DNA of 9,545 nucleotides, from positions 1 through 9,545 of IMG/VR virus record IMGVR_UViG_2778261641_000014. One strand, given 5' to 3'. A program made the translations under genes and the position numbers. This stretch comes from a virus (lineage: Duplodnaviria > Heunggongvirae > Uroviricota > Caudoviricetes). Positions 1-9,545 of the stretch are shown one piece after another. Numbering within the stretch: position 1 is the stretch's first letter; each line of letters starts with the position of its first letter. Under the pieces are notes generated by a model. It was not told the origin of the DNA and did no database searches. It saw only the letters and a list, made by a program, of their open reading frames with translations.

Positions 1-44
1 AGTCTGCAAAGAAACATCAAAGAAATAAACGATAATCCCATCAA

Positions 45-70
45 CCCGGCCACCGAGCCGGGTTTTCTTT
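45..70 (+). terminator. Rho-independent terminator, probably ending an upstream immunity-region transcript
   Basis: Hairpin CCCGGC (45-50) / loop CACCGA / GCCGGG (57-62) followed by TTTTCTTT (63-70). Confidence 0.5.
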
Positions 71-239: not shown

Positions 240-272
240 ACCAATAGTTCTTGATAATGTCGAACTATTGGT
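240..272. promoter_or_regulatory. Perfect 11-bp-arm inverted repeat; candidate operator (OL-like) or RNA hairpin
   Basis: ACCAATAGTTC (240-250) and its exact reverse complement GAACTATTGGT (262-272), separated by 11 bp. It lies about 80 bp upstream of boxB and overlaps a sigma70-like hexamer pair. Confidence 0.3.
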
Positions 273-279
273 TCATTAT
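251..279 (+). promoter_or_regulatory. Candidate pL-like sigma70 promoter (-35 TTGATA, 17-bp spacer, -10 CATTAT)
   Basis: TTGATA at 251-256 and CATTAT at 274-279 with a 17-bp spacer, embedded in the palindrome and upstream of boxB and the N-like gene. The hexamers are weak and the call rests on position alone. Confidence 0.25.
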
Positions 280-348: not shown

Positions 349-363
349 GCGCTGACAAAGCGC
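349..363 (+). promoter_or_regulatory. nutL boxB RNA hairpin (P22-type, GACAA pentaloop)
   Basis: GCGCTGACAAAGCGC is a 5-bp stem with a GACAA loop and matches the phage P22 boxB sequence as I recall it. It sits about 130 nt upstream of an N-like ORF that carries an arginine-rich N-terminus. No clear boxA (CGCTCTTA-like) was found upstream. Confidence 0.7.
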
Positions 364-875: not shown

Positions 876-1103
876 GTGGTGAATCAGACATACATTCCAT
901 CATGCTTGAGAAATCTGCCAAAGCAGAAAGCAAAGCCCCGCAAGCAAGCCATAAAGGACGCTAAGTCAGAGGTTATTGATCAAGCAATACAATTGCTCAG
1001 GAAGGAGTTAAGAAGTGGCAAGCTCGAAGGAATGATGATGCCCTATCAGCGCGGATATCTATCGGCGATTAGTAAGTTGGAAGTATTGAAGAGTGAATTA
1101 TGA
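876..1103 (+). CDS. Hypothetical small basic protein (75 aa), immediate-early position
   Basis: ORF beginning at GTG 876 directly after the N-like stop, with GAGGT 866-870 as a possible RBS. Lysine-rich N-terminus. No family recognised. Confidence 0.45.
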   Translation: MVNQTYIPSCLRNLPKQKAKPRKQAIKDAKSEVIDQAIQLLRKELRSGKLEGMMMPYQRGYLSAISKLEVLKSEL

Positions 1104-1167
1104 ACTATCTGGAATTTCCGGATGGTTCATTGTTTTGGCAGCAAACCAATTATTTGAGAGCTGATAC

Positions 1168-1410
1168 ATGAGAGTAAAAACTATGGGCGCAAGCCCATTA
1201 AGCGGTCGTATTTTTCAAGGAACATTAAACACTGAAAAAGGAATGTGGGTAGGAAAGAAAGAAGATGTCACCGATCAAGCAGTTAAGGCAGTAGCCGAAC
1301 ACCTGATGATAAAAGACCAGAAATATGCATACGAAACGAAGGATGGCAAATGGCTGATAATAAGTCATCAACTGGTTGATAAATTACCAGAAGAGTTTGT
1401 TGATGGTTAA
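1168..1410 (+). CDS. Hypothetical protein (80 aa; alternative start at ATG 1183)
   Basis: ORF with a GAGAG motif upstream, lying between the N-like gene and the first intrinsic terminator. No family recognised. Confidence 0.45.
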   Translation: MRVKTMGASPLSGRIFQGTLNTEKGMWVGKKEDVTDQAVKAVAEHLMIKDQKYAYETKDGKWLIISHQLVDKLPEEFVDG

Positions 1411-1448
1411 ATTTGCTTTGGAATAAGCAACAGAATAAACACTGCACT

Positions 1449-1476
1449 GTGTATTCATTCCAACGAGTGAATACAC
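1449..1476. repeat. Perfect 9-bp-arm inverted repeat with 10-nt spacer (function unknown)
   Basis: GTGTATTCA (1449-1457) and TGAATACAC (1468-1476) are exact reverse complements. Located in the intergenic region about 60 bp upstream of the tL1-like terminator. Confidence 0.6.
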
Positions 1477-1538
1477 GGAGCAATGTCGCTCGTAACTAAA
1501 CAGGAGCCGACTTGTTCTGATTGTTGGAAATCTTCTTT

Positions 1539-1565
1539 GCCCTCCAATGTGAGGGCGATTTTTTA
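1539..1565 (+). terminator. Rho-independent terminator (tL1-like, inside the pL operon)
   Basis: GCCCTC (1539-1544) / loop CAATGT / GAGGGC (1551-1556), then GATTTTTTA. In lambdoid phages a terminator at this position is bypassed by N antitermination. Confidence 0.65.
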
Positions 1566-1584
1566 TCTATGAGGATATGAATAG

Positions 1585-1953
1585 ATGTCAAACATCAAAA
1601 AATACATCATTGATTACGACTGGAAAGCATCAATAGAAATTGAAATCGACCATGACGTAATGACAGAGGGAAAACTTCACCAGATTAATAATTTCTGGTC
1701 AGACTCTGAATACCGACTCAATAAACATGGCTCTGTATTAAATGCTGTATTAATCATGCTGGCGCAACATGCTCTGCTTATAGCAATTTCGAAAGACTTA
1801 AATGCATATGGTGTTGTTTGTGAGTTCGACTGGGATGATGGAAATGGTCAGGAAGGATGGCCTCCAATGGATGGTAGTGAAGGAATAAGAATTGCCGATA
1901 TCGATACATCAGGAATATTTGATTCAGATGATATGACTATCAAAGCCGCCTGA
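1585..1953 (+). CDS. Hypothetical strongly acidic protein (122 aa), low-GC gene; candidate anti-restriction / anti-defence (DNA-mimic-like)
   Basis: RBS GAGGA 1571-1575 before ATG 1585. The translation has about 22 Asp/Glu against 9 Lys/Arg, with an Asp-rich C-terminal third. The gene is visibly AT-rich compared with its neighbours and occupies the ral / gene-17 slot between N and cIII. Confidence 0.6.
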   Translation: MSNIKKYIIDYDWKASIEIEIDHDVMTEGKLHQINNFWSDSEYRLNKHGSVLNAVLIMLAQHALLIAISKDLNAYGVVCEFDWDDGNGQEGWPPMDGSEGIRIADIDTSGIFDSDDMTIKAA

Positions 1954-2028
1954 GCGCGGCTTTACCGCATACCAATAATGCTTCACGAGAGGCATTTTCG
2001 TTATGCAATCAAATATAAGGAGTTACCC

Positions 2029-8101: not shown

Positions 8102-8177
8102 TGGTGCCGATAATAGGAGTCGAACCTACGACCTTCGCATTACGAATGCGCTGCTCTACCAACTGAGCTATATCGGC
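8102..8177 (-). tRNA. thrW: tRNA-Thr (anticodon CGU), thrW-type; prophage attachment site
   Basis: The reverse complement of 8102-8177 folds as a cloverleaf: acceptor GCCGATA, D-arm GCTC/GAGC, anticodon loop TTCGTAA (anticodon CGT), T-arm GGTTCGACTCC, 3' ACCA. 76 nt, matching E. coli thrW as I recall it. Confidence 0.9.
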
Positions 8178-8291: not shown

Positions 8292-9545
8292 TTACGCACG
8301 AATGGTGTAATCACCAATGCCGATCCACTTGTAAGTGGTCAGTGCTTCCAGCCCCATTGGGCCACGCGCGTGGAGTTTTTGTGTGCTTACCGCCACTTCC
8401 GCACCCAGACCAAACTGGCCGCCGTCGGTAAAACGCGTAGAGGCGTTAACGTAAACAGCGGACGAATCCACTTCGTTAACAAAACGCTGGGCGTTGCGCA
8501 TATCGCGGGTCAGGATCGCATCGGAGTGTTGTGTGCCGTGTTCACGAATATGGGCGATGGCATCGTCAAGATCGCTGACGATTTTGACGTTCAAATCTAA
8601 TGACAGAAACTCATCGTCATACTCTTCGGCTTTAACAGCAACCACCTTCGCAGGGCCTGCCTGCAACTGCGCCAGTGCAGCTGCATCTGCGTGTAATGTC
8701 ACGCCGCTTTCCGCCATTTGTTTGCTTAATGCGGGCAGGAAGCTATCGGCGATGTTTTTATTCACCAGCAACGTTTCAACCGTATTACATGTGCTCGGAC
8801 GCTGAGTTTTCGCGTTGACGATCACTTTTAATGCTTCAGCGATCTCTACACTTTCATCAACGTAAATATGGCATACGCCTATACCACCTGTGATCACCGG
8901 GATTGTCGACTGTTCACGGCACAGTTTATGCAAACCAGCGCCACCACGCGGGATCAGCATGTCGATGTATTTATCCATACGCAGCATTTCACTGACCAGC
9001 GCACGGTCAGGATTATCAATCGCCTGCACGGCACCCGCCGGTAAGCCGCAGGATTTCAGGGCGTCCTGAATCACCGCCACCGTTGCAGCGTTAGTGCGAC
9101 ACGTTTCTTTGCCACCGCGCAGGATCACCGCATTACCGGTTTTCAGGCACAGCGAAGCGACATCAACCGTCACGTTCGGGCGCGCTTCATAAATCACGCC
9201 AATAACCCCCAGCGGTACGCGACGACGCTCAAGACGCAGGCCGCTGTCCAGTACGCTGCCATCGATTACCTGCCCCACCGGATCGGCGAGGTTACACACC
9301 TGGCGCACATCATCGGCAATGCCTTTCAGCCGTGCGGGCGTCAGTGCCAGACGGTCAAGCATCGCTTCGCCAAGGCCATTGGCACGCGCGTCAGCAACAT
9401 CCTGGGCGTTAGCGTTGAGGATGATTTCGCTTTGTGCTTCCAGTTCATCGGCGATTTTTTCCAGCACGCGATTTTTTTCGCGGCTGGAGAGTTGCGCTAA
9501 TTTATACGAGGCTTGCTTCGCGGCAATGCCCATTTGTTCCAGCAT
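8292..9545 (-). CDS. proA: Gamma-glutamyl phosphate reductase (glutamate-5-semialdehyde dehydrogenase), complete, 417 aa
   Basis: Full-length minus-strand ORF whose translation ([38 protein letters not shown] ... [12 protein letters not shown]) is recognisable as E. coli ProA. The start codon is the last three bases of the window. Confidence 0.95.

Follow-up and report, generated by a model that had tools for sequence, protein, structure and literature searches.

The two open reading frames that lie between the antiterminator gene N and the first strong terminator of the early-left operon, hereafter ORF1 (PHROG 5305) and ORF2 (DUF7446/PHROG 1578), are conserved protein-coding genes and independent, horizontally mobile cassettes. 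Our preferred explanation is that both occupy a variable pL slot of a thrW-proA prophage and encode putative early binders. To this statement as a whole we give a probability of about 0.6, whereas the part of it that concerns the identity of the genes and the architecture of the locus is very probable. The slot extends from N to the small RNA PreS and its terminator tL2a, within the early-left (pL) operon. The locus is an instance of ordinary lambdoid mosaicism in a known accessory region, with two uncharacterised genes.

The window, i.e., the whole stretch of 9,545 nucleotides that was analysed, forms the left arm of a P22/lambda-type lambdoid prophage, the features of which are collected in Table 1. 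Positions 286-319 align with the start of the lambda pL transcript. The boxB-like stem-loop is presumably of the P22 type, and the nut type of P22 would then be the same as that of the window. On the 3' side of the ea10-like gene the order is cIII, kil, an Arf-like gene, erf, ssb, small early genes, xis and int. A tRNA-Thr(CGU) gene (8102-8177) directly follows the integrase gene, and proA (8292-9545) lies beyond it on the minus strand. We take this end to be the thrW attachment site, which P22 also uses. Hence, the window covers the prophage-chromosome junction.

Table 1. Features of the window that bound or make up the accessory slot (positions are those of the window).
Feature	Position	Strand	Remark
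Terminator	43-64	+	
pL-like sigma-70 promoter, TTGATA-17-CATTAT, inside an inverted-repeat operator	251-279	+	
nutL boxB-like stem-loop, GCGCTGACAAAGCGC	349-363	+	
Antiterminator N gene, 127 aa	492-875	+	PF25694, E 1e-15
ORF1, 74 aa (75 from GTG 876)	879-1103	+	phrog_5305
Hairpin / near-palindrome, 14 bp, overlapping the ORF1 stop	1100-1130	+	
23-codon ORF	1100-1171	+	
Cassette linker	1131-1167	+	includes the ORF2 Shine-Dalgarno
ORF2, 80 aa, ATG start	1168-1410	+	Pfam DUF7446 / phrog_1578
Perfect 14-bp hairpin just 5' of the PreS homologue	1447-1478	+	same sequence in lambda
PreS/LPR1 sRNA homologue, ending in a tL2a-type terminator	1477-1564	+	boundaries approximate
ea10-like gene (DUF2528), downstream border of the slot	1585-1953	+	

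The frame of ORF1 is present in the ORF list at 876-1103 on the plus strand (75 aa from GTG), as given in the preliminary description, and its product is indeed basic, with a pI of 9.9 and 15 lysine and arginine residues against 7 aspartate and glutamate residues. The conserved start is position 879, one codon after 876, which gives a protein of 74 aa; this codon is ATG in about 90% of the related loci and GTG in the window, and a GAGG Shine-Dalgarno lies 7 nt upstream of it. The distance from the N stop to the ORF1 start is 3 nt, the two genes being in the same frame with TAA and one GTG codon between them (873-881). An N-ORF1 readthrough fusion, for which the common frame and the single TAA would allow, was rejected on account of a second in-frame stop in the Citrobacter homologue. 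The phrog_5305 profile was matched with an E value of 1e-36, ORF1 residues 3-75 corresponding to profile positions 2-71 of 71, and no Pfam model was found for the family. Homologues form 40 clusters in a large protein collection. PHROG 5305 is nevertheless a very small family, which comprises 23 representative clusters (50% identity) in a set of 1.8 billion proteins, and a profile search with the ORF1 alignment against the 1.8 billion representatives returned 23 small relatives only, with no informative domain fusion. A profile search of genome contigs for ORF1 yielded 2 loci, and divergent DNA was taken from the contigs encoding homologues. The AlphaFold2 (AF2) model (pLDDT 85) predicts a Lys/Arg/Pro-rich N-terminal tail followed by an antiparallel helical hairpin, with helices at residues 22-46 and 55-74 and a conserved MPYQRGY turn.

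The homologue of ORF1 lies directly 3' of N in mEpX2, mEp213, mEp506, JEP4, ECP1, phi296/phi367 and an Stx2c phage. Distant homologues, with 37-56% identity, were found in HK225, Erwinia phage Midgardsormr38, Sasha-like siphoviruses and Pseudomonas phage PS-1. In HK225 no other gene stands between the annotated pL promoter and the homologue, and no N is annotated upstream of it; in the Sasha-like siphoviruses it stands between terminase genes, and in PS-1 beside genes for DHFR and a methylase. Other genes intervene between N and the homologue in Enterobacter, Citrobacter and Leclercia prophages, and a terminator-like GC hairpin with a T-run precedes the homologue in three of the related loci (L173, L175, L179).

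ORF2 is likewise present at 1168-1410 on the plus strand in the ORF list (80 aa from ATG). It is a full-length member of Pfam DUF7446 (PF24233), matched with 100.8 bits against a cut-off of 24.1 over ORF2 residues 4-72 and profile positions 2-70 of 70, and phrog_1578 matches it with an E value of 5e-40. The residues that are invariant in a 29-sequence alignment of DUF7446, namely K4, S9, G13, G18-T19, W27, D33-V34-T35, V42 and E44-H45, are all found in ORF2, which thus shares the family motif D-V-T...A-V-A-E-H. Its pI is 6.7, and its AF2 model (pLDDT 90) predicts a three-stranded sheet, a helix carrying the invariant AVAEH and then a beta-hairpin. Homologues form 61 clusters in the large protein collection. 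P22-like Salmonella phages carry the gene beside ral, and it is also shared by about 270 virulent Vi01-like Ackermannviridae, Serratia phage Eta and others. No mention of DUF7446 was found in the literature searched.

The preliminary description had regarded both ORFs as unannotated and as matching no family. The first point holds for ORF1, which is a "hypothetical protein" in phage records and often featureless in RefSeq E. coli genomes, but not for ORF2, which RefSeq annotates as "DUF7446 family protein"; the second has to be given up, since both belong to catalogued families whose function is uncharacterised. The same description had named a lack of coding conservation as an argument against the genes, and the comparison of codons pointed the other way. 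Indeed, both ORFs are under purifying selection (dN/dS about 0.05-0.25), with values of 0.14 for ORF1 in comparison with L175 and of 0.05-0.25 for ORF2 in comparison with L109, L132 and L140. In more distant pairs dN is 0.2-0.5 where the synonymous sites have already reached saturation, and protein similarity persists. The reading frame is intact in all 45 distinct nucleotide alleles of ORF1 and in all 67 of ORF2. When set against its nearest alleles (L004, L012, L015, L057, L080 and others), the window copy of ORF1 shows 1-5 nonsynonymous and 0-1 synonymous differences, which are too few to call selection; it carries S31 and K43 where other alleles have A and E.

Homologue clusters of the two ORFs come from Escherichia, Shigella, Salmonella, Enterobacter and Citrobacter and also from Klebsiella, Leclercia, Yersinia, Serratia and Aeromonas. 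Across 5,426 complete E. coli genomes, 149 carry ORF1, 45 carry ORF2 and 18 have the two side by side, so that both were found together in 18 of the 176 genomes with either. No adjacent ORF1 and ORF2 were found among the records of the phage collection. Since co-occurrence is this rare, ORF1 and ORF2 are separate modules, and a toxin-antitoxin or other obligate two-gene system was ruled out on the same ground.

The mobility of ORF1 is also seen at the nucleotide level, the last ~65 nt of N, ORF1 and the first ~55 nt after it being 97-100% identical beside unrelated N alleles and unrelated downstream genes. ORF1 is co-inherited with the N 3' end, the downstream hairpin and the linker. As had been suggested at the outset, the content of the interval was tabulated across related phages, and it proved to be a hypervariable accessory slot, occupied elsewhere by Ral, Nmad5, SieB and Gad1. 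In the 84 loci with both an N end and a downstream terminator, the N-to-terminator interval occurs in 69 versions of 429-2250 bp. Its cargo comprises Ral, Nmad5, SieB (on the opposite strand), DUF7446, an IS1 insertion and more than 12 families without a Pfam match, with frequencies that are biased because the loci surveyed were chosen for carrying ORF1 or ORF2. In the N-kil interval, Gad1, of the anti-Gabija family, was observed in the Enterobacter prophage L173 (3307-4281), and the nucleotide-modification-associated protein Nmad5 in L175 (1841-2464) and L006 (2275-2898). In the IMG/VR locus L033 the Nmad5 gene is apparently broken by an IS1-like insertion, the IS1 being recognised by eye.

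In P22 the order in this region is 24, sieB/esc, ral, orf78, orf87, 17 and c3, and the P22 record annotates gene 17 as "allows growth on Fels2 lysogen", i.e., counter-exclusion. The accessory genes ral-orf78-orf87-17 have the same operon position as the window ORFs and their phage the same att site, but orf78 and orf87, which were compared as candidate homologues, are unrelated to ORF2 or ORF1. The sieB gene is found in the interval in lambda, in P22 and in some related loci, on the opposite strand and with its own promoter. As for lambda ral, ORF2 shares its position in the pL operon and its downstream junction to the PreS region, and all are small proteins (66-80 aa) in a hypervariable, horizontally exchanged slot. 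However, PF11058 was unmatched by ORF1 and ORF2 at E values up to 1, Ral clusters apart from ORF2 in the cargo survey, and the role of Ral in alleviating type I restriction is not transferable to ORF1 or ORF2. Thus, the objection that the ORFs might be Ral-like regulators did not apply, neither of them matching the Ral profile.

The downstream end of the slot had been described as a tL1-like terminator at 1539-1565. A hairpin with a T-run does lie 3' of both ORFs, with the stem at 1537-1558 (-12.9 kcal/mol, z -4.6) and six T at 1559-1564, but the element corresponds to the lambda ral-ea10 intergenic region with 96% identity and is therefore tL2a, the 3' end of PreS/LPR1. Indeed, window positions 1417-2005 align with lambda 34072-33483 at 96% identity, which covers the ral-ea10 intergenic region and ea10. 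The remainder of lambda 32500-35800 gave no alignment to the window apart from the pL transcript start, and a homologue of the tL1 region is absent. In lambda, the ral-ea10 region encodes an Hfq-dependent sRNA, LPR1/PreS, of ~88 nt that is processed to ~68 nt; its GC hairpin and poly-U are the early-left terminator tL2a, it raises dnaN translation and aids phage replication, and 2,537 genomes conserve it with an identity of at least 92% (bioRxiv 10.1101/2024.10.31.621285). The window sequence at ~1477-1564, which also has the GC hairpin and U-run, shows 2 mismatches in the last 88 nt and so belongs to PreS by the threshold of at least 92% identity used in that work. About 2,300 E. coli genomes were found to match the region. 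Lambda homology starts ~7-20 nt past the ORF2 stop, much as it does ~15 nt past the end of ral in lambda itself; ORF2 is therefore a cassette that takes the place of ral and replaces it at the same PreS-region junction. The two phages differ upstream, the window phage being without the lambda tL1 region, which in lambda is situated between N and ral and acts as a Rho-dependent terminator. In lambda, ral expression needs N. PreS of the window phage may be made without N, as no lambda tL1 region precedes it. The perfect hairpin at 1447-1478 possibly indicates where PreS is processed at its 5' end. In the metagenomic locus L179, a near-identical copy of this hairpin (one loop difference) was observed directly 3' of the ORF1 homologue.

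As regards transcription, pL is the sole promoter-like site upstream on the plus strand and neither ORF has its own, from which we infer that it drives the transcription of both. The hairpin at 1100-1130, which stands between them, is conserved and stable (-19.9 kcal/mol, z -5.3; core TCTGGAATTTCCGGA). It was named by a lenient terminator scan but fails a discriminant of the type of d'Aubenton-Carafa et al. (1990), with a score of -13.8 and a T-tract value of 2.57, its stem base being A/U-rich and its T-tract broken; these scores are rough, because the formula was combined with modern energies. On the same rough scale the hairpin at 1537-1564, with a score of +22.4, is the first after pL to pass. 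Searches with 78-nt windows across 286-1565 revealed no rut-like (C-rich, G-poor) stretch. Since the 1100-1130 hairpin is below the threshold, no rut-like stretch occurs and the first strong terminator is that at 1537-1564, it is plausible that N, ORF1, ORF2 and PreS are carried on a single transcript of ~1.28 kb made before antitermination. ORF1 would be translated by coupling to N and carried on this immediate-early transcript, on which ORF2 and PreS would probably lie as well, the intervening hairpin being a poor terminator. Early expression is firmer for ORF1 than for ORF2 because there is no gap between N and ORF1. Hence, judged from sequence features, an immediate-early expression is rather probable for ORF1, whereas for ORF2 the odds fall slightly short of even; Rho-dependent termination ahead of ORF2 may be compatible with the sequence. 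An immediate-early status does not extend to the whole ORF1 family, since homologues elsewhere are separated from N or stand behind a terminator-like hairpin.

Searches for function placed the proteins in families without reaching a characterised member. The profile searches that had been proposed assigned ORF1 to PHROG 5305 and ORF2 to DUF7446/PHROG 1578, but led to no characterised protein; against PDB sequences nothing was found below an E value of 0.04 for either ORF, and fold searches against the PDB and BFVD gave no significant match. PADLOC and NCBIfam returned only sub-threshold noise for the two ORFs, and neither shows sequence or fold similarity to anti-defence families (Ocr, ArdA, Gad1, Ral and others in Pfam; solved PDB structures). 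Nor does either protein resemble a classical acidic DNA mimic, as their pI values indicate. The ral region of lambdoid phages was treated as an accessory region by Silas et al., who screened 200 accessory proteins. The motifs of ORF1 and ORF2 are absent from the 200 tested protein sequences of the supplement, in which Ral is present. The orf184 of the ral region in that study was considered as a counterpart of ORF1 or ORF2 and rejected, as it starts with "ME" and is a different protein.

Each product is proposed, with low confidence, to be a small non-enzymatic binder of a component of the host or of a rival phage, and the predicted basic helical hairpin of ORF1 would most likely, again with low confidence, bind nucleic acid or an acidic protein surface. 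The neighbours (Ral, Gad1, Nmad5, gene 17, Gam/Abc, cIII and Kil), the small size and the patchy horizontal spread suggest by analogy, although only tentatively, that both are stoichiometric binders for host takeover or counter-defence, like known occupants of the slot. A stricter version, in which one or both ORFs would block one particular immune system of the host at the very start of infection, is rather doubtful. It draws on the presence of Ral, Gad1, Nmad5 and P22 gene 17 in a slot that lies upstream of the anti-RecBCD genes Gam/Abc, on the standing of the ral region as a recognised accessory region, and on the patchy, accessory-gene-like distribution of DUF7446 across temperate P22-like phages and ~270 virulent Vi01-like phages. 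However, similarity to any known anti-defence family is lacking, neither family is among the 200 genes of the published screen (Silas et al.), and the reasoning is one of guilt by association in a slot that also holds the defence gene sieB and has as neighbours cIII and kil, which modulate host physiology. Just as doubtful is the extended form in which at least one of the families would be a new early inhibitor of a host immune system and, in phages arranged like this one, N, ORF1, the cassette and PreS would make up one immediate-early transcript, so that counter-defence and the hijacking of host replication would begin ahead of antitermination.

Instead, ORF1 could be a partner of N in early transcription, i.e., a basic protein associated with RNA or with RNA polymerase/Nus, or a stabiliser of N, acting perhaps via the palindrome. 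The location of ORF1 3 nt past the N stop in the same frame, its constant coupling to N in E. coli phages, the recombination unit that it shares with the C-terminal end of N in over 100 loci, its basic character with the predicted Lys/Arg/Pro-rich tail and helical hairpin, the palindrome core CCGGAATTTCCGG kept in Citrobacter and Leclercia homologues and the first position after pL in HK225 all speak for such a role. It is nonetheless improbable, given that homologues occur without a nearby N gene (Sasha-like siphoviruses, Pseudomonas phage PS-1), that other genes stand between N and the homologue in other genera, that HK225 has no annotated N upstream of its homologue and that the hairpin is without clean compensatory changes. 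A benefit to the lysogen, with the ORFs expressed from the prophage for superinfection exclusion or defence, would agree with the frequency of defence genes in prophage accessory slots and with the presence of SieB in this very interval in lambda, P22 and some related loci. But sieB differs in being on the opposite strand with its own promoter, whereas both ORFs lie on the pL strand, neither has a promoter-like site to itself, and in a lysogen both would be repressed; PADLOC has no match for either, DUF7446 is common in strictly virulent phages, and this explanation is accordingly very improbable. Finally, chance ORFs or decaying remnants without function might be expected in a 9.5 kb window with 101 ORFs of at least 30 aa, in which the ORF1 allele starts with GTG rather than ATG and differs from others at 1-5 nonsynonymous and 0-1 synonymous sites. 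This is hardly credible in view of the full-length HMM matches of both ORFs, the dN/dS of 0.05-0.25 at larger divergence, the intact frames in 45 (ORF1) and 67 (ORF2) distinct alleles and the confident AF2 folds (pLDDT 85 and 90).

Should either of the two cassettes turn out to encode a factor for counter-defence or host takeover, the catalogue of the phage-host arms race would gain a new family and a target. Wider interest would then attach to DUF7446, because Vi01-like phages are in therapeutic use. The corrected map, in which the "first terminator" is PreS/tL2a, two separate cassettes occupy the ral slot and ORF1, not ORF2, is tied to N, guides the choice of constructs and controls for experiments on the slot.

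The sequence between the two cassettes has features of its own. The Citrobacter and Leclercia homologues (L172, L176-L178) have retained the palindrome core of the hairpin at 1100-1130, and in these loci a GC hairpin and a T-run lie 3' of it; in the printed Citrobacter comparison (L177), the synonymous sites of ORF1 are saturated. Clean compensatory changes were looked for in this hairpin among relatives and none was seen. It might serve in protein binding, in RNA processing or as a weak attenuator. The linker that follows reads TGTTTTGGCAGCAAACCAATTATTTGAGAG...ATG, and the same motif is found 5' of different cassettes in other phages, the sequences splitting into many continuations past the motif TGTTTTGGCAGCAA. 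A similar linker, with a T-run, GGCAGCAAGC, TTATTTGAGG and ATG, precedes other cassettes and also ORF1 itself in Enterobacter and metagenomic relatives. From its sequence, this element looks like a shared junction that would permit cassettes to be swapped by homologous recombination. The recurrent form of the inter-cassette linker was a T-run, GGCAGCAA(G/A)C, TTATTTGAGG, 5-7 nt and ATG, and it was also observed 5' of the ORF1 homologue in L173, L175 and L179. The 23-codon ORF (MNYLEFPDGSLFWQQTNYLRADT) has two ATGA overlaps, one with the ORF1 stop and one with the ORF2 start. It may serve translational coupling and is probably not a gene, a status that was rejected because divergent loci are without an ATG there. 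In some phages, gene callers lengthen this ORF into longer "proteins".
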